A DNA stretch of 64,000 nt, taken from positions 434,001-498,000 of the forward strand of contig JASTWF010000321.1 in assembly GCA_030390025.1 (NCBI GenBank), in the 5' to 3' direction. Position 1 is the stretch's first letter. Every line of letters begins with the position of its first letter. The translations under genes were made by a program, and so were the position numbers. The notes beneath the pieces were generated by a model that searched no databases, had not been told where the DNA came from, and worked only from the letters and a program-made list of their open reading frames with translations. This stretch comes from Squalus acanthias. Its lineage: Eukaryota. Shown piece after piece: positions 3,428 to 23,799 of this stretch.

Positions 3428-5711
3428 TAATTTTAATTTATTCATTGTCGGGATGTGGGCATCACTCGCAAGGCCAGCACTTATTGCCCATCCCTAGTTG
3501 CCCTTGAGAAGGTGGTGGTGAGCCGCCTTCTTGAACCGCTGCAGTCCATGTTGTGAAGGGACTCCCATAGTGCTGTTAGGTAGGGAGTTCCAGAATTCTG
3601 TGAGACTTGGAGGGGAACTTGGTGGTAGTGGTGTTCCCATGCGCCTGCCGCCCTTGTCTTTTGAGGTGGTAGAGGTCGCAGATTTGGGAGGTGCTATCGT
3701 GGAAGCCTTGGCGAGTTGCTGCAGTGCATCTTGTAGATTGAACACACTGCAACCATGGTGTGCCATGGTGGAGGCAGTAAATGTTTAAGGTGGTGGATGG
3801 GATGCCAATCAAGCAGGCTGCTTTGTCCTGGATGGTGTTGAGGTTTTTGAGTGTTGTTGGAGCTGCACTCATCCAGGGACATGGAGAATATTCCATCACA
3901 CTCCTGACTTGTGCTTTGTAGATGGTGGAAGGTTTGGGGAGTCAGGAGGTGAGTCACTCGCCGCTAAGTACCCAGCGTCCGTCTAGTTCTTGCAGCCACA
4001 GCATTTATGTGGAGAGTCTAGTTAAGTTTCTGGTCAATGGTGAACCCCAGGATTTTGATGGTGGGGGATTCAACGATGGTTATGCCATTGAACGTCATGG
4101 GGAGGTGGTTAGACTCTCTCTTGTTGGAGATGGTCATTGTCTGGCACTTGTGTGGCACAAATGTTACTTGCCACTTATCATCCCCAACCTGCATGCTATC
4201 CAGGTCTTGCTGCATGTGGACACAGACTGCCTCATTATCTGATGAATTGCGAATGTAACTTGACAATGTGCAATCAGCAGCGAACATCCCCACTTCTGAA
4301 GGTCATTAATAAAGCAGTTGAAGATGTTGGGCCTAGGACAAGGTCCTGAGTAACTGCTGCAGCGATGACCTGGGGCTGAGATGATTGGCCTCCAATAACC
4401 ATAACCATCTTCCTTGTGCTAGATATGACACTATCCAGTGGAGAGTTTTCCCCCGATCCCCATTGACTTCAGTTTTGCTAGGGCTCCTTGGTGCCACACT
4501 CGGTCAAATGCTGCCTTGATGTCGAGGACGGTCACTCTCACCTCACCTCTGGAATTCAGCTCTTTTGTTCATGTTTGGACCAAGGCTGTAATGAGGTCAG
4601 GAGCCAAGTGTTGGCCTTCATTGCAAGAGGATTTGAGTACAGGAGCAAGGATGTCTTACTACAGTTGTACAGGGCCTTGGTGAGACCACACCTGGAGTAC
4701 TGTGTGCAGTTTTGGTCTCCTTACCTAAGAAAGGATATACTTGCCATAGCGGGAGTGCAGCGAAGGTTCACCAGACTGATTCCTGGGATGACAGGATTGT
4801 CATATGAGGAGAGATTGGGTCGACTAGGCCTGTATTCACTAGAGTTTAGAAGAATGAGAGGGGATCTCATTGAAACGTATAAAATTCTGACAGGGCTAGA
4901 CAGACTGGATGCAGGGAGGATGTTTCCCCTGGCTGGGGGGTCTAGAACGAGGGGTCACAGTCTCAGGATACGGGGTAGTACATTTAGGACTGAGATGAAG
5001 AGAAATTTCTTCACTCAGAGGGTGGTGAACCTGTGGAATACTCTACCACAGAAGGCTGTGAAGGCCAAGTCACTGAATAAATTTAAGAAGGTGATAGATA
5101 GATTTCTAGACACAAAAGGCATCAAGGGGTATGGGGAGAGAGCGGTAATATGGTATTGAGATAGAGGATCAGCCATGATCATATTGAATGGCGGAGCAGG
5201 CTCGAAGGACCGAATGGCCTACTCCTGCTGCTATTTTTCTTTGTTTCTTTCTATGTTTCAAGTGGTCCTGGCGGAAACCAAACTGGGCAGCGGTGAGCAG
5301 GTTATTTGAGCGTAAGTGCCGCTTGATAGCATTGTCAATGACAGTTTCCATCACTTTGCTAATGATGGAGAGATGGCTGATGGGGTGGTAACTGGCTGTT
5401 GGATTAGTCCAGCTTTTTCCGGACTGTACATACCTGGCCAATTTACCACTTTGTCGGGTAGATGCCAGTACTGGAGCAGCTTGGCTAGAGGTGCAGCTAG
5501 TTCTGGAGCACAGGTCTTCAGTTCTGCAGCCGGGATGTTGCCGGGGCCCATAGCCTTTGCTGTATCCAGTGCGCTCTACCATTCTTGATATCACGTGGAG
5601 TGAAGCAAATTGGCTGAAGACTGGCTTCTGTGATGGTGGTGACCTCAGGAGCAGGCCGAGATGCATCATCCACTTGGCACTTGTTGCTGAAGATGGTTGT
5701 GAAGGAATCAG
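3428..5711 (-). mobile_element. CR1-clade LINE 'family B', 3' part with internal deletions, interrupted at 4611-5258
   Basis: Minus-strand RT fragments (MFAADCT, WQVTFVPHKCQ, MEYSP, MGPGNIP...APELAAPLAKL). 3' tail and A-rich end near 3428-3490 match the plus-strand copy at 42480-42555. Confidence 0.85.
4611..5258 (+). mobile_element. 5'-truncated CR1 LINE 'family A', 3' end
   Basis: ORF2 C-terminus (LVRPHLEYCVQFWSP, RGDLIETYKIL, RVVNLWN), ctatgttt tail, TSD caagtg at 4605-4610 and 5259-5264. Confidence 0.92.
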
Positions 5712-8700
5712 ACTAGAGTCCTGAATTTAAATAAAGGAAACTACGATGGTATGAGGCGCAAATTGGATAGGATGGATTAGGGAACGTTACTTAAAGGGTT
5801 GTCGGTGGATAGGCAATGGCAAACATTTAAAGATCGCATGGATAAACTACAGAATTTGTTCATCCCTGTTTGGCATAAAAATAAAACAAAAAAGGTGACT
5901 CAACCGTGGCTAACAAGGGAAATTAGGGATAGCATAAGATCCAAGGAGAGGACATATAAATTGGCCAGAAAAAGCAGCAAACCTGAGGATTGGGAGCAGT
6001 TTAGGATTCAGCAAAGGAGGACAAAGGGATTAATTAAGAGGGGGAAAATAGAGTATGAGAGTAAGCTTTCAGGGAACATAAAAACTGACTGTAAAAGCTT
6101 CTATAGATATGTGAAGAGAAAAACATTGGTGAAGTCAAGCGTAGGTCCCTTGCAGTCAGAATCAGGGGAATTTATAATGGGGAACAAAGAAATGGCAAAC
6201 CAATTAAATGCATACTTTGGTTCTGTCTTCACAAAGGAGGACACAAATAACCTCCCATACATGTTGGGGAACATAGGGTCCAATGAGAGGGAAGAACTGA
6301 ATGAAATCAGTATTTGTAGGGAAATGGTGTTAGGGAAATTGACGGGATTGAAGGCCGATAAATCCCCAGGGCCTGATAATCTACATCCTAGGGTACTTAA
6401 GGAAGTGGCCCTAGAAATAGTAGATGCATTGCTGGTCATCTTCCAAAATTCTATAGACTCTGGAACAGTTCCCATGGATTGGAGGGTAGCTAATGTAACC
6501 CCACTATTTAAAAAAGGTGGCAGAGAGAAAACGGGGAATTATAGACCGGTAAGCCTGACATCAGTAGTGGGGAAAATGCCAGTGTCCATTCTCAAAGATG
6601 TAACAGCAGAGCACTTGGAAAACAGTGACAGGATCGGACAAAGTCAACATGGATTTACAAAAGGTAAATCATGCTTGACTAATCTACTGGAATTTTTTGA
6701 GGATGTAACTGGTAGAATAGATAAGGGAGAACCAGTGGATGTGGTGTATTTGGACTTTCAGAAGGCTTTCGATAAGGTCCCGCATAAGAGATTGGCGTGC
6801 AAAGTTAAAGCACATGGGATTGTGGGGGTAAGGTACTGACTTGGATAGAGAACTGGTTGGCAGACAGGGAGCAAAGAGTTGGAATAAACGGGTCTTTTTC
6901 CGAGTGGCAGGCAGTGACTAGTGGGGTACCGCAGGGATCGGTGCTAGGACCCCAGTTATTCACAATATATATTAATGATCTAGACGAGGGTGTAGGGGGT
7001 GGTGTGGTAGGGGTCAGCCTCACCTCTAACTCAGCGAGCGGTTCGAATCGCTCCCATGCCCCTGGTTCTGGACCTTGGACTTATTTGGGGGTTGTGAACA
7101 AAGATGCAGTAGACAACAGGTTCCGATGAAAGAATTTTGACTTTTATTAAAAGAAAAGGTAACAAACTTAAAACACACTTAACACTTAAACAGGTTGGGG
7201 AACACACGGTACAGGCGAGGGAGAAATACAATATACAAAAACCCTTATCCCTCCCAAAAGTTCCACTATCTAGCTAGGTCTTGGTTTCAGGAGATCAGGG
7301 ATAATGCTCACCAAACAGGGGTTTTGACAGTGCGAAATCCAGCCAGGTAAGTTGATTGCGATTTTGAGGTACTCTCTTTTTGTCCTTTGGGGCCTGCCGT
7401 CCCCACGTGGTACCAGTCTGTGAAATCTGCGATGGTGGTCTGGTCGTCGAGTTTTGTTGCGTTGGAGGCTTGTCGGGGCGGTACCTTCTGGGGCTGGACC
7501 GTGGGTTGAGCGATGCCGACTCGCTCCCAGCCTCCAGTGACCTTGGCTAGTGGCTGCTAGTGCTAGACCGTGTGCTGAGCGATGCCGACTCGCTCCCAGT
7601 GGCCTCAGCTCTAGCCCTTGCCTGGCCTAGTCTGTCCTTGCCTCCGATCTTGCCCCGGGTCTGCCCCGGGGCCTTGCTGCTTCTCTCCACCTCCTGCTCG
7701 TGTCGTGTGGCTGGTAGTGTCTTGCTGGAACTTGCTGCAACTGGAACAGAGCTGAGAGAGACTTTCTTGGGGGATTAGGCCCTCAATTATACTGTTCAGA
7801 CCCTTTGTCTTTTTCGCGCCAAAATCCCTTTCCTAAATCGGTTTCGTGTTGAAGTGATTTAGGTTTCAGTTGAGGCCTGTTCATTCCATTGTCTTAGTTT
7901 TGCGGGCTTGTTAAGTTTTGATGGTTTTAACTTGGTGTTAAATTGTCCTGATGGCTTCCGATGTCTCCCATTTAGGCAGGGCCTTTATCTACATGCCAAA
8001 TCTTGTCCCTATAGATACCTGGCTGATTGGATTTTGATGAAGTAATGGCTGTACTAGATGTTTTATTGTTTACAGGCTTCTGGCATCCTGTTTGGGCCTG
8101 GGGATATTCAAAAGGTGTCTTGAATTATTCAATTTTGGGTGTGTTGTGAGGTTTTGGGTGAGGTTCTTCCTCCTGCCTGGATTGCAGTGCAAACAAATTC
8201 CAGACAGCTTGACACCAAAAGTTGTCCACTGCCTCGCCACACCACTTCACAAAGGTGTTTTTTTTCCCATAGTGATTTTCAAAAGTCATTTTTCCTCAGG
8301 TTTTTTTCTTCCCTGATCTTTTTAATGTCCAAAACTGAGGTTTTTACCTCAAATCACTTCACTTATGTCCCATCATCCCAAATTCGTAGGAACAGTACAA
8401 AAATCACCCCTTTTAGGGTTCTATACGAGTTTCTGGGGAATTTTGCGAAGCTTACAGGGAACTAGATGTAAATATGTCCAAGTTTGCAGACGACACAAAG
8501 TTGGGTGGGTGTGTGTGTTGTGAGGAGGATGCAGAGAAACTCCAGTATGATTTGGACAGGTTGGGTGATTGGGGAGGTGCATGGCAGATGCAGTATAATG
8601 TGGATAAATGCGAGGTTATCCACTTTGGTGGCAAAAACAGGAAGGCAGATTATTATTTGAACGGCAATAGATTGGGAAAAGGGGAAGTTCAACGAGACCT

Positions 8701-9420
8701 GGGGGTCCTTGTGCACCAGTCGTTGAAGCTAAGTATGCAGGTGCAACAGGCGGTTAAGAAGGCAAATGGTATATTGGCCTTCATAGCGAGAGGATTCGAT
8801 TACAGGGGCAAGGATGTCTTGCTGCAGTTGTACAGGGCCTTGGTGAGACCACACCTTGAGTATTGTGTGCAGTTTTGGTCACCTTATCTGAGGAAGGATG
8901 TTCTTGCCATGGAGGGAGTGCAGCGAAGATTCACCAGACTGATACCTGGGATGGCAGGAATGACGTATGAAGAGAGATTGGGACGATTGGGCTTGTCTTC
9001 GCTAGAGTTTAGAAGAATGAGAGGGGATCTCATTGAAACTTATAAAATTCTAACAGGACTAGACAGACTAGATGCAGGAAGGATGTTCCCGATGGCGGGG
9101 GAGTCCAGAACCAGGGGTCACAGTCTAAGGATAAGGGGTAAGCCATTTAGCACTGAGAGGAGGAGGAGGAATTTCTTCACCCAGAGAGTGGTGAACCTGT
9201 GGAATTCTCTACCACAGAAGGCAGTTGAGGCCAATTCATTAAATATATTCAAGAATGAGTTAGATATATTTCTTAAGGCTAAAGGGATCAAGGGATATGG
9301 GGAGAAAGCAGGGACAGGGTACTGAATTTGGATGATCAGCCATGATCTCATTAAATGGCGGAGCAGGCTCGAGGGCCGAATGGCCTACTCCTGCTCCTAT
9401 ATTCTATGTTTCTATGTGTC
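5711..9420 (+). mobile_element. CR1 LINE family A, copy 1 (ORF2 RT region), interrupted by a solo LTR at 6991-8456
   Basis: ORFs 5799-6839 and 8474-9325 carry [36 protein letters not shown] and KFADD; tail ttctatgtttctatgtgtc. Confidence 0.95.
6991..8456 (-). mobile_element. Solo LTR (about 1.47 kb) related to the ERV LTR at 17102-18569
   Basis: TG...CA ends. It interrupts CR1 at gacgaggg|gggaac, and the intact site is seen in copy 2 near 21035. Flanking ggg duplication. Clear homology of 7012-7310 to 17103-17395 and of the 8440-8456 end to 18550-18569. Confidence 0.88.
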
Positions 9421-10947
9421 TATCCCTATGATAGAGTGATTGGAACGCCCACAATCTACTGGGACTGGGTAGGCTTCAGAGGCTAGGCGGAGCTGACACG
9501 GGCTCAGTGAATTGCTGAACGGGTGGAGGGCTGCGAGGTGTTTGTTGCTAATCCAGGAGGGGACTAAACCTTGTTTTAAATCCTCCAGGTTGCTGCAGCC
9601 CTCGCCCAGCAACCATGCCCCGTATAGCACACACACCTCATTCTGTGCAGCCTGATCCGAAGCATTCCTATCCTCCCGTATGAATGCATTTACTGTTTTA
9701 GCGTGTCTCTCTAGCTCAGCAATGATCTCCTTTAAATGGACCATCATAGCTTGGTCCTCGTGTAGCTCTGAGCCTACCGCTTTGTTTTCTTCCGTTAGTA
9801 TCTTTCGTAGTTGGGTTTTTAGACCATTTATCTGTGTTTGTAGTTCTATATCGTCCAGGCTGTTTATTACAGAGGATCCTGTATTGTAGATAGTGAAAAT
9901 ATTGTTCCAGGTCCCCCTTCTTTGTCTCCCTGCGCCCATAGTGTGCTCTGCGTGTAGTTTGTACAGCTCTGCTTTGTCTATGTTGGCAAAGTCAAATTCG
10001 TAGAATTTCCTAAACATTTCTTTCAGCAGGGCCTGGTATAGCTGTTCTGTCTCCTTAGGACACCATTCAGGTAAGTATACCTCGGTAAGATTTAAGATAA
10101 CTGAAGCTACTGCCTAGTGTACCCCCTGGTAGAGTACCTTTTCGGTCGGCACTAGCACTAGCCCATTCTCTGGTCCCTTGGTGGTGGTAGGACACCTCTC
10201 CATTACTGTCCGTGATGTTGGGGTCGTGGGCAGGGGCTTTCGGGGTCGTGCTACTAGTTCGGTGGCGTTGACTGGGATCGGGGAGTGTGGGAGCGCGCAC
10301 GCATGCAGGCTAGAGTCCCACCCCATCCCCTTCCCGGTGTCTTGCCATTGTCTGGAGAAGATGATGGATATGCCTGTGGGGCAGGCCTTCTCTGATCCCC
10401 ACATACAGACATAGATTCCCTGTTCCGACTCCCACCACTTATCCCAACACACACTCATACCCCCTTGGGTCCCTGTGATCGTCCGGTAGGTGTCGTTCCC
10501 CAGTCGTTCCCAGTCAGCTGTACGGTCCCCTATGTCCCTGCTCAGCTTCCTGAGCCACCACCACCTATCCAGGGGAATCCGTGCCTTGCAGGTGAGACAC
10601 ACACGTTTCCCCTCAGTGACGCTGACCCTTGTAGCAACGACCTGTACCCTGGGGCACGGGATGGAGGCCTCCCCGTAGGTGAACCCGGTCTGGCTGGAGT
10701 ATTTTGTGGAGTTAGACCCCAGCCACCTTGGCCAGCTTCCCTCATGGAAGTAAATAGCGAGCTCCTCCACACCCGGTTTGCCACCCCCAGCGGTAACGAT
10801 CGGCGCTCTCTCTCCCGAGCACCCATAAATGTGGGAGTCCTCCACGTCACCTCGGTCACCGATGCTCACCCCTACCAGGGCGAGCAGGAGCAGAACCCTT
10901 GTCAAGCCGATTTCCTCTCTGTAGGGACACACAAAACAGATAGCCAT
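9420..10947 (-). pseudogene. env: env, 5' half: signal peptide, Ig-like domain, Pro/Thr stalk, furin site RQRR, candidate fusion peptide and heptad repeat
   Basis: ORFs 10114-10947 and 9412-10017 are in one frame, separated only by a TAG at 10114-10116. Hydrophobic VLLLLALVGVSIG; RQRR at 9916-9927 followed by GTWNNIFTIYNTGSSVINSL and a long helical segment. Confidence 0.85.
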
Positions 10948-11107
10948 GTCCCGAGAAGGTTCTCTGGCCTGACAGGTGACCGAGTCTCGAAAATGTACTT
11001 ACTTAAGTAAAAATAATTCACTAAAACTAAAACTACCAAAAACTGTAAAACACACCTAAAATACCTAAAAACTCTGTACATCTGCCGCCCGTCTCCGGAC
11101 GGCCAGG

Positions 11108-14100
11108 CTAATTCCTGTATGGCCTCTGCCTTGGGCAGCCTCTGAGCAGCCTGTACGCCTGGGCGTAAGGTGGCCTGTACCGCAGGACCCGGAGAGTCCT
11201 TCTTAAAACGGCTGAGGGTTTCCCTGAATCCCTGATAATCCGGTGAGTGTCCCCTCCTGTGCTACAGCACACTACCCCCTTTGGTGTGGCTGCTGAGTCC
11301 CTGTCCTGTCCTTTGGGTTCCCCGCAGCCTGAGGCCGCAGGCTGGGGATCCCTCTTCTTAGAATGACCACTGACTTTGGGTATTCTCTTTCGGGTTGTGG
11401 CCCTTGCTGGGCTGAACCATTGAAACTCTGGTGACCACGGTCGTTTTGGCTGTGGTGTGCGAGGAGACCTTCTCAGGACTCTGGCTACCGGGGGTGCGTC
11501 CAAGTCCCACATAATTGGTGGGGTAGCCCCTCCGGTGACACAAGCCACTGCCCCTACCGGTGCGGTCTGTGAGTCTGCCACAGCTGCTGGCTGAGGCTCT
11601 CTAACTTTAGGGTGGTTTGCCCTTGCTGGCTGTTCCCCTTTGGATTTAAACAGCTTACACTGGTTAATGTGGAACCACTTGGTGCGGCGGGGCATCTTTA
11701 TGGCGTAGACCATGGGGCTTGCCTTGTCGACAATGCTGTACGGCCCCATGTACAGTGGTTCGAAACTCCCTACCCGGGCAAAATTCCTAACCATGACCTG
11801 ATCCTCTATCTCCCACTCGTGGTGCTTGCGGGGTTCTAGCAGCAGTCGGATACTCCGATGCTGTTTTCCCATGTTGCTAGCAGCCTGCCAGTGAACCTGT
11901 TTAAGGTGTTCAAACAGATTCCTGACAAAGCTGTCCCAGTTGACCTCACTGAGCTTGACCCTCTGTGAGCACCGGGTCTAGCACATGGGTGGGGATCCAC
12001 ATAATCCTACCAGTCATGAGCTGGTGTGGGGAATACCCCGTGCTTTTTGACTGGCTGGCTCGGATCCCCATTAGGACCAACGGTAAGACTTCTACCCACT
12101 TCTTGGGTGAGTCTCCCGTTTCCTTCCGTAGCCTTTCCTTAATGGTACGGTTTAAACGCTCCACAGGACCCGATGACTGCGGGTTGTGGGCGACGTGCCA
12201 TTTCCCTTCAATGCCGAGTACCCTGAGGGTCTCTTGCATGACCTGCCCGGTAAAATGACTCCCCTGGTCGGACTCCACATACTGCGGTAGGCCCCATCGT
12301 GAGAACACTTCCCTGACCAGGATCCTAGCCGTACCCAATGCAGTAGCAGTACGGCATGGGAACGCTTCCACCCACTTCGAGAACACATCCACCAGGACTA
12401 GGCAGTACTTAAAGCCTCCCTGGGCGGTGGGTAGGGGCCCAATGTAATCGACCTGGATCGACTGCCATGGTCCCTCTACCCTCCTGATGTGTCCCATAGA
12501 TACCTTCCTTTTCTGGGGGTCTGGGTTGTTAGCAGCACACACCAAACAGCCGGCACAAAACTCGCGGACCTCTTCCCTGAGTCCTGGCCACCATCCTGTC
12601 TGTTCCACCCGTTGCCAGGTGGTCTCAGGTCCGGGATGTCCCGCTCCTGGACCCTCATGGGCCAGTTGGAGGAATTCCCTTCGGTGCTGCTGCGGCACCA
12701 CCCACTGCTCCCCCCTGAACAGCATGCCTTCCTTAATGGTGATGGCTGCTGTGCCGTACGGGCCCTCTATCTTTTCCCCTTTTTCCAGGGCGTTCAGGAC
12801 GGCCTTGAGGACGGTATCCTGGGCTTGGGCCTGCTTTAAGTCCGGGGCCAAGGCTACCCCCTGGGTGCCTCCCTTGCTCCGGATTGCGGCTACTGGACCT
12901 GTTTGGTACAGATCCCAGAATACCCTTTCCCTGGCCCCCTGTTTGGCCAGCTCGTCTGCCTTACAGTTACTCTCCCACCTGGGCTCTGTCTTTGAATGGG
13001 CCTTGACCTTATGGATATAGACCTTCCCTTCCTCCCCCACGGCCGCCATGATTTTCTCCAACAGGGGCTTTATGGTGAGGGGTCTCCCATCAGCGGAGGT
13101 ATAGCCGCGACGGGACCAGATGGCCAGGTACTCCGTACACGAATTGCATGTGAACATGCTGTCCGAGCAAATCGTGTATGGGGTAGGGAACTTCTCGGGG
13201 TGTGTAACCACGTACACTACCGCAGACAGTTCAGCCTGCTGGGCGCTCATGGTGCTGGGGAGTTTAATTGCCAGGGCAATGCCTGCCTCCTGGTCATAAA
13301 CTCCACACCCGGTGAGTCGCGCGCCAGCAGATACTGTGCTCGAACCGTCCACATAGATTTCGCGGCCTGTGGGGTGTATCCCGGCCTGAAAACCTATGTT
13401 GACTTCCCATACCCCTTCAATGGAACACCGGTGGGCAGTCCCTGGGTAGATCATGTTGGCTGCGAGCTTCAGCTCGCAGAGACCTTTCACCCTTAGGTCC
13501 ATCTGTGAGAGAAGCAGGGTCCAGCGAGCAATACGGGCACTGCTCACTGTCCCATCTTTGATTCTCCCATCTAGGAGCATCTGGGTGGGCGTGTGATGGG
13601 TGAGCAGGGTGATGGGAGATGTTCCTGTGAAGATCAATGATCTTTTCACAGCGCAGTGAGTGGCGAGGAGGTGCCTCTCACAGTTGGAATAGCCCTTCTC
13701 CACATCGGTGAGTATCCTGGAGGAGTAAACCACTGGTCTCAGCCGGTCGTGCCTCTCTTGGAGCAGCACGGCACTGAGACTGTCCCCACTGGCTGCCACC
13801 TCCAGGAAAAACTCCCTCTCCCCATCAATGGCCCCTAGAGCCGGCGCGGTCTGCAGATCTTTCTTTAACTTGAGAAATGCTGCCTCGCAACCCTCGTCCC
13901 AGGCCCACTCTACACCCTTGTGTAGGAGTCGGAGCAGAGGGGCTGCGGTGGCTGCGTAATCCTCAATGAAATCTCTGCAGTACCCGGTTAACCCTAGAAA
14001 GGATCTCACTCCTGTGACTGTGTTGGGGGCTGGTAACTCCTGCACTGCTTCCCTCCTAGCTTTGTCGATGGCCCTTTCCCCAGCGCACACAGTTAGTCCG

Positions 14101-15308
14101 AGGAATTTTACTTCCTGTTGGCCGATCTGTACCTTCTTTGGGTTCACTTTGAAGCCTTCTTGCCGGAGCAGCTCCAGCAGTTCAGCCAGTAGTGGACCGT
14201 GTTCCTCTCCCTCATCGGTGAACAGGAGTAGGTCATCCACATACTGTACCAACTGCCGGGGCCGGCTGAAGCCCTTCAAACAATTCGCCATGCATTGGTG
14301 AAAAATGCTAGGGCTGTTGTGGAAGCCCTGAGGTAGGCAGTTCCAGGTGTACTGTTGGCCTTTAAAAGTGAAGGCGAACTTGTACTGGTCCTCTCTTCGT
14401 AAAGGGATGGACCAAAACCCGTTGGAAAGGTCCAGCACTGTGAAAGTGGTCGCAGATGCTGGGATACTTCCGATGAGGTCGGTGATGGCTGCTACCGTGG
14501 GTGCACAGGCGGGGATGTTACGGTTGAGTACCCGATAGTCCACTGTGGCCCTCCAGGAGTTGTCCGGTTTTCTAACCGGCCACAGTGGAGAGTTTACGTG
14601 GGTGGCTATCGGTCTCAATACCCCCTGTGTTACTAAAGAAGCCATGGCCGTTTCCATGTCTGCTTCCGCCTCCCTGGGGAAATTGTATTGCTTCTGTGGT
14701 CGGGTCATGGGATCCCCGCTGACACTAACCTCAACCCCGTTTACCCTCCCACAATCGTGCTTGTGAGTGGCAAATGCTGCGAGATGTGCTCGCACAAATG
14801 CCTGGTATGCCATCGGAGTGTTACTGACCATTTGTTCGAGGTCATAACCTTCCTTTGGTTTCAGGGTGCACAAGGTCCTCTTGCCCTGTTTCCCTGGGAT
14901 GACTGCCACTTCACTTTCTCTGCCAGTACGTGCTCCCCACAGACAGTGGTTCCTAAGATCCACTAGAATCCTGTGGCCTGTGATAAAGTCGGCCCCCAGG
15001 ATCCCCATCCCTTCCCGCTCCCATTTCATCAGGACACAGGTCCACTTGGTGTGGAGTGCTCCTAAATGAATGGACAGCGGGATGGAGAACGAGCCAGCCT
15101 GCTTGTTACCTGTAAACCCCACTAAGCTGTACGGGACCCCATTAGACAGAGGTGAGGCGGCGGGGTTGGCTGAATAGACTATGGTGCTGGAAGCTCCAGT
15201 ATCTAACAGATAAGTCCCTTTCACCTTCTCCACCTCCATCCTAACGAGTGTTCTCTTCCATGCGTCGTACTCCAGGGGACACAGGTAGACAGGCTGCGCT
15301 GGCTCGAG
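11108..15308 (-). pseudogene. pol: pol: protease, RT, degenerate RNase H (tether), second RNase H, integrase with GPY/F motif; one frameshift near 11946
   Basis: LLDTGAS; LPQGFHNSP and QYVDD; FFLEVAAS...PVVYSSR; IYVDGS, SAQQAELSA, SDS, KVKAHS, NCKADELAK; HHCC; QVDY, SDQG, VERLN; YMGPY. Confidence 0.95.
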
Positions 15309-17050
15309 TCATAAGTCTGCGTTAGGGGGGGCAGATGGGGTTAAAGCACCAGTGGCGGTGGCTACTTTCCCCGGGCCGTTTACTAGAGCTCGGATCGCAG
15401 CCATGACCGAGTCTAACGTGGGGGGAGAGGTCGGTGCTTCGGTGCTCGGGGCAGGAGCTGGAGAGTTCTTCCCTATGTTATCCTTCCACGGATTCCTGCA
15501 GTCTTTTCTCCAATGCCAACTCTTCCCGCACCCGAAGCAGTTACGCTTCGTGTCGGAAAGGTTACCCCCTTCCTGGTGCCACTCTTTCTTTTTGCTAGGC
15601 CTTATTTCATGTACCTTTCCCTTAGGTGGGTGCTCTTCTGTCCCTCTACCGTTCCGGTAAGCCAGGGTCAGTTGTCTGACCACTGTCTCCTCGGTGACCT
15701 GGGGGTCTTTCGGGTCAAACAACAGCTCAGCCTTGGCCCTGATCCGTGGCAAGCTGTTTGCCACTAGGCTTCGGAGCCAGTGGGCCAGCTCATCCTGATT
15801 CAGGTGAGCCTGGTCGAGAACTCCATTACAGGCACTCCTGTACACAGGCCACAGTCGGTCTGCGAAAGCCTGTGGGGTCTCCCCTACTAGCTGGGTTGTC
15901 TTCTCCACCCGGGAGAAGGGACTACCATCATTCATTCCCATGGCCTCCAGAACTCCCTCTCGGATAGCGGCGTATCCACCCTGCCCTCTTTTACTCTCTG
16001 CGGAGAGGGACTGGTAGATTTTACTATCTAGGAAGAACAGGAGCATCTTTGCCATCTCGGCATCATCACAATCGTTGATGCCCCCGCTGCCTGTTCCACT
16101 TCCATGAAGTGGACCGAGGGGTGAGCTTGCCCAGGTGGCTTATCATAGCCCTAAGCTGTTGGGTGCCGTGCGGAGCCACGAATTGGCTTTCAAGGGGTCC
16201 TTGACCCCCACCACCGCCGGGCGGGCCGAACATTTGCTGCCGGACCGGGCACATCGGCCCCGGCTCCAACCTTTCCTGCATTGGTTCGCCCTCCCCTCCC
16301 TGCTGCCAAACCGAGTTAAAACCCGGCGCCACAGGTGGTGGTGGTGTGCTCTCCCTGCCAGCCTCACAAATCGCCCGTCCCTCCTGCTGCCCAACCGGGT
16401 CGTTCCCAAGGCGTCACAGGTGGCGTCCGAACAGTTTCCCCCTGCCCCTCCAGATCCACCCGGGCCGCACCCGGGCTTAGTAGGCATACCATGCCTTTCG
16501 CCCTGGACAGAGCAAGGTTCAAATTCTCTATTTGTTTCTGGCAGGGGCCGTGATCTCCCGCCTCATACACCCTAATTCTTGCTATCTTGTAAGCTGCCTG
16601 GACGTCTCTCAACCTCTCCTCCTGCTCTCTTACTTGTTTGGCCAAGCGGGCGTTCTCTTCCCGTAACACCAGCTCACTGGTTTTAGCTTCGGTGACCTGA
16701 CACTGAAAATATTCCTGCCTGTTCCTATGTGTTTCCACTAACTGCATTTTTTCCTGATTTCGGGTGGTTAGTTCATTCAGTAATGTTTCCCCTGCTAGGG
16801 CCCTTGCTTGAGACAGCTGAGCAGACTCCTGCAGCTCTGCCTTAAGTCCCTCAACATGTTTGTCTAACAGCTGGATCTGTCGCTGGGAGCAGATCAACCA
16901 GATGGCTTTCTCCACAGATTTCTTGTGGTCTTTGCTCTCAGTCCATTTAGCTGCAGCGTCTATTGGACGCTCAGCACGCAACAGACTGAGTACCCATTTC
17001 TTGGTTATGTTCACTTTCTCGAACACATAAGAGGAAATCCTCTCTTCCAT
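15309..17050 (-). pseudogene. gag: gag with N-terminal coiled coil and CCHC zinc knuckle, frameshifted
   Basis: ATG in good Kozak context at 17050 (aagATGG). Coiled-coil-like ORF to about 16500; CFGCGKSWHWRKDC knuckle in ORF 15309-16055. Pieces lie in different frames. Confidence 0.85.
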
Positions 17051-17101
17051 CTTGGTTCTCTCCTCAAAAACAGTGTCCACTGCATCACATCCCTTTTGCC
17101 A

Positions 17102-18569
17102 AGGTCAGCTTCACCTCTGACTTCTGAGCGGTTCGAATCGTTCCCACTCCCTTGGTTCTAGACCTTGGACTTATTTGGGGGTTGTGACAAAAAGTGCAGC
17201 AGACAACTGGTTTTGATGCAAGAACTTTGATCTTTATTGAAGAAAGTAAAACACAACACAAATACTCTTAACACTCTAAAAGTGGGGAACACTTCGGTAC
17301 AAGCGAGGGAAATAACATTAGAAGAATACTTCACCCCTCCCAATCCCACTTCGCTAGCTAGGTTGGACTCCAGAGGATCAGGGATGATACTCACCAGAAT
17401 CCTTGACAGTTAGGTTAGTTCGCGGTTTTGGAGTTCACTCTATATGTCGGTTGGTGTCTGCCGTACCCCGTAGGCGGTAGAGGACTTCAACTGCGTATCT
17501 GGTCAGTCTTCGCGAGTCCGCTGATGCGGTAGGGTGCGTATTGGATTTATCAGGTGAGTACCACTTTTCTTTGGTTAGAAGTAGGGTTTAGAGTTTTTTT
17601 AAGGGAAATTCTTACCCAGGGGTAAGTCAGGAGTAGATTGTAGAGTGGAAACTTTGCGGATCTTCGGTTTTTCTTCGAGTTGGTTTTCATTGGTCGCGGT
17701 GGCCCAAATATTGGTACTTGGTGTACGGTTGGTTGTTTCGTGAGGGCCTTGTTGCCGCGAGGTGTCCGATGGTCACTGAGGCGGTCGTTCTGGTTTCTTC
17801 TCGTGTCAGCCTACTTTGTTGGATGGTCTGGCCTTCGAGCTGTCGACCTCCTGGCTGGACACGGAATGCTGAACGGTGGTGTTGCAGAACTGTGTTGCGG
17901 AGAATGCCTCCGTCGATGTCTTCTTGTTCTTCCTTCCTCTTCTTCTTTTTCAGGTTGAGAACGGGCCTTCAATTATACCCATTGAAGCTCCCTTATCTGC
18001 GCGCCAAATCAGGTCTCGGTCTTTGTTAGATTTTGGCGGGCTCGATAACGGTAACTGGTTTGTTAAGGTGTGAAGTGGTTCCGGGATTGCCCCATCCTGT
18101 CGATTTACCACTTAATCGGAGTTTGTTTATTCTTATGTTTTGGGTTTTTCTTGGCTGGGCCTAGGATTTCTATAGAGTAGGCCGAAGTAATCTGTTTTAT
18201 GCATGTCTTAATGGGCTCTGTAACTTGGGGTGGAGACTGGTTTTCCTCGGGTTTATTGTTAGGATGCTAATGTCTGATAGGGGCCGATTTAAACTCCCAG
18301 TGAGATCATGTGGTTCCCCAGACAGTTTCCATTAGCTCCAATACCCAAACTGTTTTTACAGAGGTTGATCTCACCTTCCTTCACAGCCTTTTCTCCCTTA
18401 CAAGCCCAGACATGTTTTAAAAATACCAAATCTTGGTTTTTGCTCAAAATGTCCTTCGGTTAGGCCCAATGCACTTCACCACCCTGTAATAGCTAGAAAA
18501 GAGTCCAAAGTCTTTTTCCTTAGGGTTTTTCTTAGTGTTAGGGGATCTGTGAATTTTGAGAATCTTACA
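17102..18569 (-). mobile_element. LTR of the ERV (about 1.47 kb)
   Basis: Begins TGTAAG immediately after the PPT. TATAAT at 17972-17977, AATAAA near 17233, homologous to the solo LTR. Confidence 0.85.
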
Positions 18570-18580
18570 GTCCCCCCTCT
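18570..18580 (-). promoter_or_regulatory. Polypurine tract (agaggggggac) preceding the LTR
   Basis: Plus strand gtcccccctct directly abuts the LTR end cttaca. Confidence 0.85.
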
Positions 18581-18863
18581 GATACTTTACTCGCTAGAGT
18601 ATCATACTGGGTGAGCAAAATTCCTGATCTCCGAGAGCCAACCTTCCCCTGTAGTTTACCTATCTAAGACCCAAAACACACATTTCCCTTTAGGTGTAGT
18701 GTTCAGATGCAGACACAGGTAAGAATTCAGTTACTTTCACATCCAAGCACAGAGGGGGTCCAGCACCCCTGCACCACTTGGAAAAACACAGTACATACAT
18801 AGTAAAAAATAATACACGGTCACAAAAACTTTATATATTTTAATAAAACAACTAAGGCTTGCC

Positions 18864-19716
18864 CTAAACCTGGCCATAGGCTTTATTGTAATGCTGGTCC
18901 CATGCTTTCTCATGTCGGGATCGGAGCACTCTGTCCTTTCCCTTGCATTTTGTGCACAGTAAGTAGACAACTATACCAAGCTGGCAGACCACTAAAATGT
19001 GGGAAGCCATTCTGATCCAGGAAGGGACCTCTGTATTTTTGAAAATATCCCACCAGGGTGGAATTATGATGCCCGAAATCTCAGCCCCTATCTCGACTGT
19101 CTTTTGTTCCAGAGTGTAGAAATGTTTTTGTGATACTTCTACTGCTTTGAGTAGGGCAGTAAGATGTTCGGGTAGAGGGGGAATCTTATAGCTGAAGAAT
19201 GTGACATCGTTTTGCAGGTTGGTGATGTTTTCCCTGACAGTGAGGTGAACAGTGGAAGGTTCAGGAATGGGGACAATCCGTTCCTGGGCCACTTGAACTT
19301 CTGCCTCGGGTTTAAAGCAGAAACTGCTGTCACTCACCGGACACCAAATGTGCTGTCCATGCTGGTGGGGCTTGTGTCAATATGTCCCACCCGCTATGAA
19401 TGCTGCCTGTGGGGGAACATGGCCTTGTGCCATTACCTCCATGGTACAGTTGATAGGCCGTGCACCTGCAGCTTTAAAGCTGCACTGTGGTCTAGAATAG
19501 GCATTCAAGTGCTGGGGACACAATATTATGTGTGCACCCCGGCTCCGGCACCCGGAGAGGTCAGTACCTGTCATAGCGTGCTCCCACTTTATGACATAAG
19601 GTGGGACTGCTGCGAAATGGACGTGTGCACCCCCTTGAATGATCTCAATGTTCTCCACCCTGTATACCGGTGCGGGTCGGGCTGTCCCACCCATGACCGG
19701 CATCCTCACTACTATC
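18864..19716 (-). pseudogene. env: env, 3' half: Cys-rich region, heptad, transmembrane helix and cytoplasmic tail
   Basis: ORFs 19377-19718 and 18864-19337 are in one frame with a single TGA. TM-like ILVVCQLGIVVYLLC followed by a basic tail; joins the env 5' half in frame. Confidence 0.85.
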
Positions 19717-21984
19717 ATAATATGATAGAATTCTTCATTAAGATGGAGAGTGAAGTAGTTGACTCAGAGACTAGGGTCCTGAATTTAAATAAAGGAAACT
19801 ACGATGGTATGAGGCGCGAATTGGCTAGGATGGACTGGGGAACATTACTTAAAGGGTTGACGGTGGATAGGCAATGGCAAACATTTAAAGATCGTATGGA
19901 TGAACTACAGAATTTGTTCATCCCTGTTTGGCATAAAAATAAAACAAAAAAGGTGACTCAACCGTGGCTAACAAGGGAAATTAGGGATAGCATAAGATCC
20001 AAGGAGAGGACATATAAATTGGCCAGAAAAAGCAGCAAACCTAAGGATTGGGAGCAGTTTAGGATTCAGCAAAGGAGGACAAAGGGATTAATTAAGAGGG
20101 GGAAAATAGAGTATGAGAGTAAGCTGGCAGGGAACATAAAAACTGACTGTAAAAGCTTCTGTAGATATGTGAAGAGAAAAAGATTGGTGAAGTCAAGCGT
20201 AGGTCCCTTGCAGTCAGAATCAGGGGAATTTATAATGGGGAACAAAGAAATGGCAAACCAATTAAATACATACTTTGGTTCTGTCTTCACAAAGGAGGAC
20301 ACAAATAACCTCCCAGAGATGTCGGGGAACATCGGGTCTAATGAGAGGGAGGAACTGAATGAAATCAGTATTTGTAGGGAAATGGTATAAGGGAAATTGA
20401 CGGGATTGAAGGCCGATAAATCCCCAGGGCCTGATAATCTACATCCTAGTGTACTTAAGGAAGTGGCCCTAGAAATAGTAGATGCATTGCTGGTCATCTT
20501 CCAAAATTCTATAGACTCTGGAACAGTTCCCATGGATTGGAGGGTAGCTAATGTAACCCCATTATTTAAAAAGGGTGGTAGAGAGAAAACGGGAAATTAC
20601 AGACCGGTAAGCCTGACATCGGTAGTGGGGAAAATGCTAGAGTCCATTATAAAAGATGTAATAGCAGAGCACTTGGAAAACAGTGACAGGATCGGACAAA
20701 GTCAACATGGATTTACAAAAGGTAAATCATGCTTGACTAATCTACAAGGTGTAACTGGTAGAATAGATAAGGGAGAACCAGTAGATGTGGTGTATTTGGA
20801 CTTTCAGAAGGCTTTCGATAAGGTCCCGCATAAGAGATTAGAGTGCAAAGTTAAAGCACATGGGATTGGTGGGGGTAAGGTACTGACTTGGATAGAAAAC
20901 TGGTTGGCAGACAGAAAGCAAAGAGTTGGAATAAACGGGTCTTTTTCCGAGTGGCAGGCAGTGACTAGTGGGTTACTGCAGGGATCGGTGCTAGGACCCC
21001 AGCTATTCACAATATATATTAATGATCTAGACGAGGGAAGTAGCTGTAATATCTCCAAGTTTGCAGACGACACAAAGCTGGGTGGGCGTGTGTGCTGTGA
21101 GGAGGTTGCAGAGAAACTGCAGTATGATTTGGACAGGTTGGGGGATTGGGCAGATGCATGGCAGATGCATGGATAAATGCGAGGATATCCACTTTGGTGG
21201 CAAAAACAGGAAGGCACATTATCTGAACGGCAATAGATTGGGAAAAGGGGAAGAGTAACGAGACCTGGGTGTCCTTGTGCACCAGTCGCTGAAGGTACGC
21301 ATGCAGGTGCAGCAGGCGGTTAAGAAGGCAAATGGTATGTTGGCCTTCATAGCGATTCGAGTACAGGAGCAAGGATGTCTTGCTGCAGTTGTACAGGGCC
21401 TTGGTGAGACCACACCTTGAGTATTGTGTGCAGTTTTGGTCGCCTTATCTGAGGAAGGATGCTTTTGCCATGGAGGGAGTGCAGCGAAGATTCACCAGAC
21501 TGATACCTGGGATGGCAGGAATGACGTATGAAGAGAGATTGGGTCGATTAGGCTTATATTCGCCAGAGTTTAGAAGAATGAGAGGGGATCTCATTGAAAC
21601 TTATAAATTTCTAACAGGACTAGACAGACTAGATGCAGGAAGGATGTTCCCGATGGTGGGGGAGTCCAGAACCAAGGGTCACAGTCTAAGGATAAGGGGT
21701 AAGCCATTTAGGACTGAGAGGAGGAGGAATTTCTTCACCCAGAGAGTGGTGAACCTGTGGAATTCTCTACCACAGAAGGCAGTTGAAGCCAATTCATTAA
21801 ATATCTTCAAGAAGGAGTTAGATATATTTCTTAAAGCTAAAGGGGATCGAGGGATATGGGGAGAAAGCAGGGACAGGGTACTGAGTTTGGATGATCAGCC
21901 AGGATCTCATTGAATGGCGGAGCAGGCTCGAGGCGCCCAATGGCCTACTCCTGCTCCTATTTTCTATGTTTCTATGTTTCTATG
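19716..21984 (+). mobile_element. CR1 LINE family A, copy 2
   Basis: Near-identical to copy 1 over long stretches; RT motifs; (ttctatgt)n tail at 21960-21984. Confidence 0.95.
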
Positions 21985-23527
21985 ACAGTCACTCTCACCT
22001 CACCTCTGGAATTCAGCTCTTTTGTCCATGTTTGGCCCAATGCTGTAATGAGGTCAGGAGTCAAGTGGCCCTGGCGGAAAGCAAACTGGGCATCGGGGAG
22101 CAGGTTATTTGTGCTTTGTTAGTGCCTCGTGATAGCATTGTCGATGGCAGCTTCCATCACTTTGCTGATAATGGAGAGATGGCTGATGGGGTGGTAACTG
22201 GCTGTTGGATTAGTCCCGCTTTTTGCGGACTGGCCATACCTGACCAATTTACCATTTTGTCGGGTAGATGCCAGTACTGGAACAGTGTGACTAGAGGTGC
22301 AGCTAGTTCTGGAGCACAGGTCTTCAGCACTGCAGCCGGGATGTTGTCGAGGCCCATAGCCTTTGCTGTATCCAGTGCGCTCTACCGTTCTTGATATCAC
22401 GTGGAGTGAAGTGAATTGGCTGGAAACTGGCTTCTGTGCTGGTTGGACCTCAGGAGGAGGCCGAGATGCATCATCCACTTGGCACTTGTGACTGAAGATG
22501 GTTGCGAAGGCTTCAGCCTTGTCTTTTGCAGCCACGTGCTGTGCTCCGCCATCATTGAGGATGTGGATGTTCAAGGAGCCTCCTACTCCCGTCAGTTGTT
22601 AATTGTCCATCACCATTCCCGACTGGATGTGGCAGGACTACAGAGCTTTGATCTGATTCATTGGGTGTGGGATCGCTTAGCTCTGTCTATAACATGCTGC
22701 CTCCGCTGTTTAACATGCATATAGTCCTGTGTTGTAGCTTCACCAAGTTGGTTTCTGATTTTCAGGTACACCTGGTGCAGCTCCTGGCATGCTCTTCAAC
22801 ACTCCTTATTGAACCAGGTGTGGTTTGATGGTAATGGTAGAATGAGGGATATGCCAGGCCATGAGGTTACAGATTATGGTGGAATACAATTCTGTTGCTG
22901 CTGATGGTCCACAGCACCTCATGGATGCCCAGTTTTGAGCTGCTAGATGTGTTCTTAATCTATCCCATTTAGCACGGTGGTAGTGTACAGAACATGATGA
23001 AGGGGTGTCCTCAGTGACTCGGTAGTACCATAATTAACCAATCTGGCTGAGTCCTGAAGGACATAGCAGCCAGATTGGTTCACGGCAGGTGGTGAGAGAA
23101 TAAACACGAGCCACTACCAAGCCACACTTGGTGATGGACATTGAAGTCCCCCACCCACAGTACATTCTGTGCCCCAGCAGCCACAGTGCGCCTGGTGAGG
23201 AGGGAGTAAATGTTTAAGATGGTGGATGGGGAGCTGATTAAGCGGCCTGCTTTCCCTTGGATTGTCTCGAGCTTCGTGTGTGTTGTTGGAGCTGTAACCT
23301 TCCAGGCAAGTGGAGAATATTCCATCGCACTCCTGACTTGTGCCTTGTAGAGGGTGGAAAGGCTTTGGGGAGTCAGGAGGTGCTGAGGCACTTGCGCAGA
23401 CTACCTAGCATCTGACTAGCTCTTGTAGCCACAGTATATATTGGGCCGATCTAGTTAATGTTCTGGTCAATGGTGACCCCCAGGATGTTGATGTTGGGGA
23501 ATTCAACAATGGTAATGTCATTGAATG

Positions 23528-23799
23528 TGATGCGGAGATGCCGGTGTTGGAGTGGGGTGGACACAATTGAGAGGTCGCACAACACCAGGTTATAGTCCAA
23601 CAGTTTTATTTTAAATCACAAGCTTTCGGAGTTAAAACTCCTTCGTCGGGTGAAGTGAGGAGATACAGAATCGTCAAAGCATACGCTTTGACGATTCTGT
23701 ATCTCCTCACTTCACCCGACGAAGGAGTTTTAACTCCGAAAGCTTGTGATTTAAAATAAAACTGTTGGACTATAACCTGGTGTTGTGCGACCTCTCAAT
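23528..23799. mobile_element. Penelope-like element 3' end in inverted (palindromic) configuration
   Basis: 115 bp perfect arms 23566-23680 and 23685-23799; TSD (t)aatgtcattgaatg; PLE-type tail gaaagcttgtgatttaaaataaaactgttggactataacctggtg. Confidence 0.85.
23712..23749 (+). ncRNA. Minimal hammerhead-ribozyme-like motif (variant core) within the PLE tail
   Basis: tcac-CCGACGA-aggag/ctcc stem-GAAA-gctt-gtga; the canonical core is CUGANGA...GAAA. Confidence 0.55.

Follow-up and report, generated by a model that had tools for sequence, protein, structure and literature searches.

Retroviral circles are usually regarded as dead ends, and integrase-independent insertion has been documented mainly in yeast assays. 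LINE insertions onto the tails of earlier LINEs are known from target-primed reverse transcription, as is 5' transduction, and K111, an endogenous retrovirus (ERV) that has been multiplied together with its surroundings, is a colinear provirus. The Tf1 element of fission yeast is described as inserting without integrase by a homology-directed route through Rad52 single-strand annealing (Li et al. 2022, PMC11042837; review PMC12786077), and circles with one LTR are described as by-products in the accounts of Yang et al. (bioRxiv 10.1101/2022.09.25.509424) and of Ty circles (PMC4751563). Our literature searches found no report of a permuted germline provirus or of a re-integrated LTR circle. Here we describe an ERV of Squalus acanthias whose arrangement bears on each of these systems.

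The DNA analysed, a stretch of 64,000 nucleotides that we call the window, carries on its minus strand retroviral elements in the order env3'-PPT-LTR-gag-pol-env5', with one LTR, flanked by two direct plus-strand copies of a CR1 LINE (CR1-A and CR1-B). Self-BLAST and Pfam searches agree on this order, including the mid-placed LTR, as the original prediction had read it, and by self-BLAST the interval from CR1-A to CR1-B amounts to one retroviral genome. The pol region (11946..15308) is an open frame of 1120 amino acids in which Pfam identifies protease, RVT_1, RNase H and integrase domains; its matches among PDB sequences are to gammaretroviral RT-RNase H and to foamy-virus PR-RT and integrase. 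The gag region, which consists of several ORFs and a leader, occupies 15309..17101, and a PBS-like sequence, TGGCAAAAGGG, adjoins the LTR. The LTR itself (17104..18569) has the PPT, AGAGGGGGGAC, on its env side and the leader and gag on the other. Beyond it, the PPT and the 3' part of env (18570..19716; two ORFs with a stop between them) end in a break at 19712-19716 on the 5' end of CR1-B (junction J3). The 5' part of env, on the surface-subunit side, lies at 9424..10998, again as two ORFs separated by a stop, and breaks at 9424 on the tail of CR1-A (junction J2). Apart from a weak Ig_3 match in this 5' part, the env and gag ORFs matched no Pfam family, and comparison of the env5' ORF with PDB sequences gave nothing meaningful. 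The gag-pol-env order, with protease, RT, RNase H and integrase domains, is that of a provirus. Because the sole LTR is internal and both ends of the copy lie within env, however, the permuted copy is not the product of an integrase, and the integrase-independent entry that had been proposed is upheld. Solo LTRs of the same ERV family bear 4-bp duplications; the permuted copy is without terminal LTRs.

The sequence CTATC is present at both env breaks (9420-9424 and 19712-19716), and from codon positions the reading frames of the two env ORFs agree across the break (...SNHSIIG/IVVRM...), in line with the open frame that the original prediction had read on joining the two ends. We searched the genome for joined ends with a gapped pattern, with N at the break, and observed that they are contiguous in 124 other copies (70 + 54), against 0 for a reversed-pattern control. 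Among the matches listed, the 5-nt gap is CTATC or a close variant, and at twelve joined-env loci the alignment with the window stops at 9420 and resumes at 19716. A single env gene is thus divided between the two ends of the copy.

CR1-A (5711..9423, plus strand) is a 5'-truncated LINE with an RVT_1 domain, and its octamer tail, (TTCTATGT)n, lies directly on env5'. CR1-B (19717..21983, plus strand; start at approximately 19714/19717) is uninterrupted, also encodes RVT_1, and has its octamer tail on the repeat array to the right (junction J4). The placement of env5' on a CR1 3' tail and of env3' on a CR1 5' end is therefore as originally stated, CR1-A ending and CR1-B starting at these points. 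LINE reverse transcriptase, 5' truncation and an octamer 3' microsatellite of the form (TTCTATGT)2-3 mark both elements as CR1-type LINEs, probably of the CR1 clade itself and not of a related one. The octamer tail resembles what we take to be the avian CR1 motif. In self-BLAST comparisons, 5710-6990 aligns with 19768-21037 (95.6%) and 8456-9423 with 21034-21983 (92.7%). What separates the two parts of CR1-A is an insert of 1466 bp, a minus-strand solo LTR of a related ERV family (6991..8455), which starts TGTAGGGGG, ends CTTAC(A), has AGGG on each side, and over 7012-7313 is 78% like the LTR of the ERV. This solo LTR is present in CR1-A and in the S-type units described below, and is absent from CR1-B. 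CR1-B begins at an ...HNMIEF motif, about 50 bp further 5' in the CR1 sequence than the start of CR1-A, and at the junction of the CR1-A 5' end with the array (J1) there is a TCAG microhomology. The solo LTR and the longer 5' end of CR1-B go beyond what had been predicted for this DNA, as does the multicopy structure reported below. In our read-derived sample (Logan contigs of 4 of 20 runs; 8 studies, organism labels A-I), the contigs of the four runs were short unitigs stacked on the very abundant CR1, and the loose ends of matches to these contigs show longer CR1s that extend beyond position 19714 on the 5' side.

Both sides of the structure consist of a tandem macro-satellite with units of about 1.8-2.3 kb. 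By self-BLAST it resumes on the right at 21984..28500; the unit on the left (3749..5710), where an older CR1 3' fragment is found at 4609-5248, ends at an array position equivalent to 24776. The outer junctions, 5711 and 21984, correspond to array-unit positions about 530 bp apart, in accord with the claim that they fall in different units of the array. CR1-free target sites (GTCGAGG/ACAGTCAC) occur in the window at 24247 and 26051, and the array unit adjoining CR1-B is atypical, being about 93% identical to the equivalent flank of other copies. In two neighbouring sister units of the array, which we denote O/N/R, a 5'-truncated CR1 sits directly on the tail of an older CR1, beside the same flank; the array thus already offers an example of insertion at the tail of a CR1.

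Contrary to what the original prediction had implied, the permuted arrangement is not private to this locus. J2 was found in 50 genome copies and J3 in 46, always in the permuted order, and 37 of the 50 J2 copies have a J3 partner on their own contig and strand, with a modal spacing of 10.29 kb. In all of these pairs but one, J3 lies 4.6-23 kb downstream of J2; the exception is a stray, 13.2 kb upstream. The longest spacings, 23 kb in contigs C3214 and C3594, were considered as tandem duplications of the unit, a reading we rejected because in C3214 the middle 10 kb of the interval is without a second copy of the unit; the extra length is read as a probable nested, distantly related ERV, the pol of the element held there being 78% identical to that of the window ERV. 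The J1 and J4 patterns occur in 131 and 268 genome copies, respectively. Each of three junction probes gave at least 40 full-length or near-full-length matches, and among the best 30 LTR loci, 27 are colinear at 98-99% across gag-LTR-env3'-CR1; dispersed colinear copies of the ERV are only 82-92% identical to the window. Many copies thus share flanks and junctions and are closer than dispersed family members, as is characteristic of a passenger of amplification. We conclude that the permuted arrangement is one ancestral event, now present in some 46-50 copies inside an amplified repeat block.

ERV-free units also exist, with a single CR1 (S) and with outer junctions identical to those of filled units. 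Our base-by-base analysis covered two such S-type units, on contigs C742 and C9, and two filled copies. On C742, a filled unit and an ERV-free one, Q'-S-R', are 12.28 kb apart; they are colinear on both sides, at about 99% identity on the left and 96.5-98% on the right. The filled unit is longer by 12,577 bp, which is the ERV plus one CR1; in the window, the added material is about 12.56 kb, and comprises one LTR, the internal region and one CR1. The insert is accordingly one circle length with a single LTR, and it has direct copies of a shared repeat on either side, as expected of a one-LTR circle integrated by homologous recombination with a resident repeat.

Comparisons of S with the 2 flanking CR1s suggest which of them is the resident. 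At sites that distinguish CR1-A from CR1-B, S matches A at 34/36 in the 5' part and at 48/51 in the 3' part. We polarized the 3' part with an older CR1 copy, O, as outgroup. The 15 A-derived states are shared by S at 13 and by S55 at 9, and by array copies N56/X56 at 0; the 17 B-derived states are shared by N56/X56 at 9 and by S55 at 3, and by S at 0. These counts, which come from few copies and one outgroup, suggest that CR1-A is of the resident type along its 3' part, and CR1-B appears to have arrived with the ERV; the solo LTR, shared by A and the S-type units and absent from B, points the same way. The likeness of S to A could also stem from gene conversion between neighbouring units, whose left sides (99%) resemble each other more closely than their right sides (97%). 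A maximum-likelihood tree of the CR1 3' part supports only the pairing of wB with cB and the group N55/O55/O56, support for A with S and for B with N56 being below 80. The last informative sites are 71 nt from the end of CR1-A and 46 nt from the end of CR1-B, and the change from A-type to B-type sequence falls within the final ~50-70 nt, where the octamer tail is, and outside the body of the CR1. Since A is S-type up to 71 nt from its end and B is of its own type up to 46 nt from its end, any exchange was confined to the octamer tail.

In our preferred reading, to which we give a probability of roughly 60%, one ancient integrase-independent event added exactly one ERV-plus-CR1 unit at the 3' tail of a resident CR1 in the macro-satellite. 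The steps that we envisage are as follows. A younger CR1 would have retrotransposed at CTATC into the env of the ERV, either as a provirus or while its DNA was episomal. The octamer tail of the resident CR1 would then have been broken or nicked, and repair or priming would have used a circularly continuous ERV template, which may have been a circle with one LTR, a tandem provirus, or a pair of LTRs bridged by a template switch. A single complete turn would have been copied or recombined in, stopping at the tail of the incoming CR1, to give CR1-A (resident), env5'-pol-gag-LTR-env3', CR1-B (incoming) and then the array. Finally, the block would have been multiplied to about 50 copies through segmental or tandem duplication. 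What the sequences show is the anatomy, the division of one env gene, the multicopy state, the ERV-free single-CR1 units and the place of the A-type to B-type switch near the tail; the roles of CR1-A as resident and CR1-B as newcomer, the order of these steps, the kind of template and the enzymes are what we infer. A narrower version is put forward tentatively, as a suggestion well short of an even chance: an episomal one-LTR circle with a LINE in its env would have re-entered a vertebrate germline and become fixed, entering by copying or recombination at the microsatellite tail of a LINE already in place, with the LINE endonuclease or reverse transcriptase as a possible initiator.

Taken in its strict form, the original prediction has LTR-LTR recombination release a circle from a provirus that carried a CR1 in its env; the circle would then have crossed over reciprocally with a resident CR1, inside the CR1 body, and both flanking CR1s would be mosaic. 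The circle-length insert and the ERV-free single-CR1 paralogues sustain the part of this proposal that concerns entry at a resident CR1; the circle itself is one of several possible templates for a permuted product, and neither a circle nor a tandem template was observed. The single complete LTR also fits the stricter scheme, as do two permuted copies that retain a longer LTR-leader junction, and one-LTR circles are described as an abundant fate of retroelement DNA (bioRxiv 10.1101/2022.09.25.509424). Moreover, array copies N56/X56 match CR1-B at 97-98% over its 3' part, which could be resident sequence, as after a crossover in mid-CR1 followed by homogenisation. The reciprocal crossover point, however, was sought in the CR1 copies and none is visible in the body; site counts give no mosaic, S agreeing with A through the 3' part, and the tree adds no support for one. 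Simple homologous recombination would not be expected to confine the switch to roughly the final 2-3% of a 2.2-kb homology. Nor did we find the expected donor solo LTR, near-identical to 17102-18569: among the 40 LTR candidates scored out of 4522, the closest ones beyond the repeat block reach 94-96% identity, and the five outside LTRs examined are four solo LTRs and one with some env3' retained. A colinear provirus with a CR1 at the same env base was likewise looked for, and there is no J3 2-4 kb upstream of J2. A donor could have been missed or lost. On balance, we consider the crossover within the CR1 body improbable.

One further feature was tried as a footprint of circle closure. About 21 bp are absent at the boundary between the U5 end and the leader in the window sub-lineage, by comparison with solo LTRs and three colinear copies, and this loss is present in 31/34 pattern matches. 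We rejected it as a footprint; because the 2 permuted copies with the longer junction lack it, the loss is secondary.

Equally doubtful, in our estimation, is a retro-insertion driven by CR1, in which CR1 reverse transcriptase would be primed at the boundary between tail and array on an RNA ending in CR1-B and would continue through the antisense ERV, the latter supplied by read-through RNA from a circle or tandem or by an LTR-LTR template jump, with the 5' end sealed on the resident tail by CTAT microhomology. The insert does end in a CR1 tail at the exact base where other array CR1s end (the 268 copies of J4), the O/N/R units exhibit a tail-on-tail build with microhomology, and CTAT is common to the CR1 tail and the env break. 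Furthermore, the site that CR1 reverse transcriptase recognises is, according to PMC4316615, the hairpin and octamer at the CR1 3' end, a point in favour of our preferred reading as well. But some 12.5 kb of processive copying would be needed from an enzyme that the same source describes as poorly processive, and the antisense ERV template would have to be circularly continuous. The expected pre-capture state, a CR1 tail followed directly by the 5' end of CR1-B, gave ten pattern matches, of which 0 fall in array or repeat-block contigs, as assessed from contig and position only, and the CTATC duplication is more simply explained if a CR1 inserted into env in the ordinary way and duplicated its target site.

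Very unlikely are the remaining proposals, namely tandem proviruses, each with a CR1 in env, trimmed on both sides, and an assembly artefact: tandem retroelements are known from unequal exchange and integrase-independent insertion (PMC11042837; PMC12786077), but both outer ends here are CR1 ends and are the junctions of ERV-free units, as two random deletions would not give, none of the 37 junction pairs has a tandem LTR-int-LTR-int-LTR arrangement or a CR1 in a colinear env, and self-BLAST finds no outer LTRs in the window, while misassembly is made very unlikely by the recurrence of all four junctions on many contigs with 1-6% divergence, the two env/CR1 junctions in 46-50 copies.

We therefore return to the reading of a single addition at a resident CR1 tail, and compare it with the systems described at the outset. 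The entry of the shark ERV resembles the Tf1 route, as described in the sources cited, in that it took place without integrase at a pre-existing homologous repeat, and left a repeat-flanked, tandem-like product with no ordinary target-site duplication at LTR ends. In Tf1, however, the element's own PBS/PPT or a related LTR element provides the homology, and a colinear tandem results, whereas in the shark the homology lies in a foreign LINE, the CR1 in env, and a permuted product is joined at a LINE microsatellite tail. Also, the Tf1 insertions described are assay results, and the shark ERV is a fixed event of a vertebrate germline. In the permuted entry, we thus have a variant on an already known kind of integrase-independent insertion, one that is real and unusual: a natural, fixed, multicopy vertebrate case in which all four junctions are kept and ERV-free single-CR1 units survive. 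It indicates that a complete retroviral genome can enter a chromosome through homology to an unrelated LINE and be joined at the LINE tail, and it supplies a signature that can be searched for, namely an LTR in the interior, one gene divided between the two ends, and LINE copies on the outside.

The likeness to LINE insertion onto LINE tails is that new material is set on an old CR1 tail and finishes in a CR1 tail of its own beside the same flank, a pattern that the O/N/R units also have. It differs from 5' transduction in that an entire antisense retroviral genome, circularly permuted, would have been "transduced", and to our knowledge there is no known case of a LINE transducing such a genome. 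With K111/HERV-K, as described in bioRxiv 10.64898/2026.09.11.751073, the shark copy has in common that an ERV was multiplied as the passenger of a repeat block, with shared flanks and junctions; unlike K111, the amplified shark copy is permuted and has LINE copies on either side, so that a permuted copy, too, can multiply in this manner. Finally, the shark ERV agrees with the one-LTR circles of Yang et al. and of Ty (bioRxiv 10.1101/2022.09.25.509424; PMC4751563), so far as these are described, in content and in continuity, the LTR lying between env3' and gag. If re-entry of a circle were the true course of events, LINE tails would be landing pads through which dead-end retroviral circles return to chromosomes without integrase.

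The window (G000:C2462:434001-498000, from an assembly of 3.7 Gb in 3882 contigs) was resolved by self-BLAST and junction read-outs into the following parts, in plus-strand order. Macro-satellite units at 3749-5710 form the left flank; a plus-strand CR1 copy, CR1-A (5711-9423), follows, into which a solo-LTR-like sequence of 1466 bp is inserted at 6991-8455. Next are a minus-strand retroviral genome (9424-19716) and a second plus-strand CR1 copy, CR1-B (~19717-21983), and the macro-satellite resumes from 21984 as the right flank. The single LTR (17104-18569, minus strand) lies between the polypurine tract, towards env3', and the leader and gag, so that the order read from the sequence alone in the original prediction, env3'-PPT-LTR-gag-pol-env5' on the minus strand with one internal LTR, is borne out. 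Pol is an open frame of 1120 aa (11946-15308, minus strand) in which Pfam detected protease, RVT_1, two RNase H families and integrase domains; by PDB sequence matches this frame resembles gammaretroviral RT-RNase H, as well as foamy-virus PR-RT and integrase. The gag and env regions each comprise several ORFs with stops between them. Pfam detected RVT_1 in CR1-A and CR1-B alike, and the LINE copies are probably of the CR1 clade. Identity between the two copies is 95.6% over the 5' part and falls to 92.7% over the 3' part (self-BLAST).

Other features of the window were as follows. The insert in CR1-A, which belongs to a related ERV family, has the orientation of the ERV, is bounded by AGGG on both sides, and over 300 bp matches the ERV LTR at 78% identity. 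The ERV-free single-CR1 units have it too, and, as judged by hand from junction spacing, it appears to be absent from CR1-A of contig C3214. At the boundary of the U5 end and leader (17083-17117), 31 of 34 pattern matches lack about 21 bp between two GAC triplets; a longer junction is retained by three colinear copies (C7) and by two permuted ones (C9). On the right of CR1-B, the array unit at 21984-23500 is atypical, with only ~93% identity to the same flank elsewhere, other such flanks being 96.5-99.5% identical mutually. This deviation, which a junction probe suggests is shared by contig C898, points to a subsequent exchange with a different unit of the array. The window also contains a 7.3-kb satellite (47801-55142; about 228 copies of a C-rich 32-bp unit, 90% matches, GC 66%, strong strand skew), an inverted repeat inside the array (23560-23805; 121 nt, 98% complementary, 4-nt spacer), and a 67-68-bp tandem repeat that forms two short arrays (27-296 and 1373-1708).

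The prediction that the two outer ends of the retroviral genome are halves of one split env gene was likewise confirmed. CTATC is present at both env breaks, and codon phases agree between the two ORFs that flank them. A pattern that joined the env edges, with N at the break, matched 124 genome copies versus 0 for the reversed control, and among the copies listed the 5-nt gap is CTATC or a close variant. Twelve retrieved examples align to the window up to 9420 and then from 19716; they are only 82-92% identical to its ERV and therefore represent older or sister lineages. CR1-B starts with a ...HNMIEF motif, and contigs from other sequencing runs extend 5' of position 19714 with sequence that reads as CR1; CR1-B is thus a 5'-truncated or short-form CR1 inserted in env, with CTATC as its target duplication or microhomology. 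The 9-mer TATGATAGA occurs both just inside env, beside the break (9427-9435), and at the start of CR1-B (19721-19729), and may be a microhomology used in joining the CR1 5' end. Several CR1s with unrelated upstream flanks (e.g. G000:C1:78133255) start at the ATAATATG position of CR1-B, so there may be a short form of CR1, about 2.27 kb long, whose 5' end is preferentially placed there.

The single-CR1, ERV-free form of the locus was found as paralogues on contigs C742 and C9. C742 carries a filled unit (one with the ERV and two CR1s) and, at a distance of 12.28 kb, an ERV-free unit that has the same junctions of array to CR1-A 5' end (J1) and CR1 tail to array (J4), with a single CR1, S, that carries the same solo LTR. 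The two units are colinear on both sides (left about 99% identical, right 96.5-98%), and the filled one exceeds the empty one by 12,577 bp, equal to the ERV plus one CR1. A second such unit (C9, 5.73 Mb), whose CR1 we call S55, is 96.5% identical to the window's left flank and CR1-A, and on C1 four of six J1 have J4 next, at 3.7-4.5 kb (coordinates compared by hand). CR1-free target sites, GTCGAGG/ACAGTCAC, occur within the window at 4522, 24247 and 26051.

S agrees with CR1-A at 34/36 sites of the 5' part and 48/51 of the 3' part that separate A from B in two filled copies. We polarised 33 A/B-distinguishing sites of the 3' part with O, an older CR1 copy of the array, as outgroup: 13 of 15 A-derived states are also in S, nine in S55 and none in the array copies N56/X56, and of 17 B-derived states nine are also in N56/X56, three in S55 and none in S. 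The solo LTR is in A and S-type units and not in B. On this evidence, which draws on few copies, A would be resident over its whole length and B would have arrived whole, so that any exchange would be confined to the octamer tail; the last informative sites fall 71 nt short of the end in A and 46 nt short of it in B. A maximum-likelihood tree of the same alignment supports only the B-copy pair and a group of O with another array copy, N55, leaving A+S and B+N56 unsupported. Over its 3' part, B shares 97-98% identity with N56/X56, which can reflect either a shared young master copy or resident sequence in that part; also, since the empty and filled units are more alike on the left than on the right, gene conversion may have blurred the record. 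The original prediction, a provirus with a CR1 in env that looped out as a circle and re-entered by reciprocal crossover within the CR1 body, calls for mosaic CR1s; none were seen, A- and B-specific states running to near the tail, and we consider this strict form unlikely.

Exactly one circularly continuous unit, a one-LTR ERV plus a CR1, was added beside a CR1 tail, without integrase. There is precedent for the position: units on C9 at 5.74 Mb carry a 5'-truncated CR1 directly on the tail of the older copy O (L055 8225-8325, L056 4165-4265), in 5.0-kb tandem units of which C9 has dozens. The truncated copy ends at the flank used by filled units and has microhomology at its 5' join; two neighbouring array units thus show new CR1-borne material landing on a CR1 tail that was already there. 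The route of insertion is inferred; we favour one in which a break or nick at the resident CR1 tail would be followed by repair or priming there on a circularly continuous template. Candidates for this template are a one-LTR circle, a tandem, and a pair of LTRs joined through template switching. Such a break and template would explain why the join lies at the tail, why the resident copy is intact and why the incoming one is complete. CR1 reverse transcriptase is described as binding its RNA at the CR1 3' hairpin and octamer, its recognition site (PMC4316615), and action of that enzyme alone would fit the tail-on-tail architecture; however, it would have had to copy about 12.5 kb from an antisense, circularly continuous template, which makes this route improbable.

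The arrangement is present in many copies. An LTR search (40 of 4522 candidates scored) returned 30 loci, of which 27, the window included, are colinear with it from gag through LTR and env3' to CR1-B at ~98-100% identity, and probes over three junctions each gave at least 40 full-length or near-full-length matches (all of those scored). Exact-pattern counts were 131 for J1, 50 for J2 (CR1 tail/env5'), 46 for J3 (env3'/CR1 5' end) and 268 for J4, the last often in tandem with periods of 3.3, 4.5 or 5.0 kb. Thirty-seven J2 can be paired with a J3 that shares their contig and strand. In every pair except one J3 is downstream, mostly at 10.29 kb, with deletions and nested insertions accounting for shorter and longer spacings; the exception, with J3 13.2 kb upstream, is a stray pairing within a cluster. 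Within pattern tolerance, 13 J2 and eight J3 are without a partner. A 23-kb J2-J3 spacing on two contigs, considered as a second unit, is better explained by a nested ERV of distant relationship, judging from the middle 10 kb on one of the two. No J3 lies 2-4 kb upstream of any J2, as a colinear provirus with CR1 in env, one of the forms looked for, or a tandem sharing one CR1 would have it. The copies are on many small contigs, in clusters on C9 and C1, and inside the first ~1.1 Mb or so of seven large contigs, which by contig coordinates only would suggest enrichment at chromosome ends. The copy on C898 (L002, G000:C898:28879-33346), 99.6-100% identical to the window across the ERV with ~745 bp extra at position ~18833, may be either a very young duplicate or the same locus in another haplotype. 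Most simply, a single ancestral event took place and its product was then amplified along with the surrounding repeat block. Tandem proviruses later trimmed, or an assembly artefact, are very improbable, as the former needs two deletions each ending exactly at a CR1 end, and misassembly, also raised originally, cannot explain four junctions that recur, at 1-6% divergence, across dozens of contigs.

The near-identical donor solo LTR that had been anticipated was not found, the best LTRs outside the repeat block being 94-96% identical (best 40 of 4522 candidates). Five of these were inspected: four proved to be solo LTRs bounded by 4-bp duplications, and the fifth has some env3'.

K111 is reportedly an ERV that multiplies with its flanking repeats. 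A literature search of limited coverage returned no report of a circularly permuted germline provirus bracketed by LINE copies. One-LTR circles are a major fate of retroelement DNA (bioRxiv 10.1101/2022.09.25.509424), and for Tf1, integrase-independent insertion through annealing to homologous sequence, with tandem products, is established (PMC11042837; review PMC12786077).
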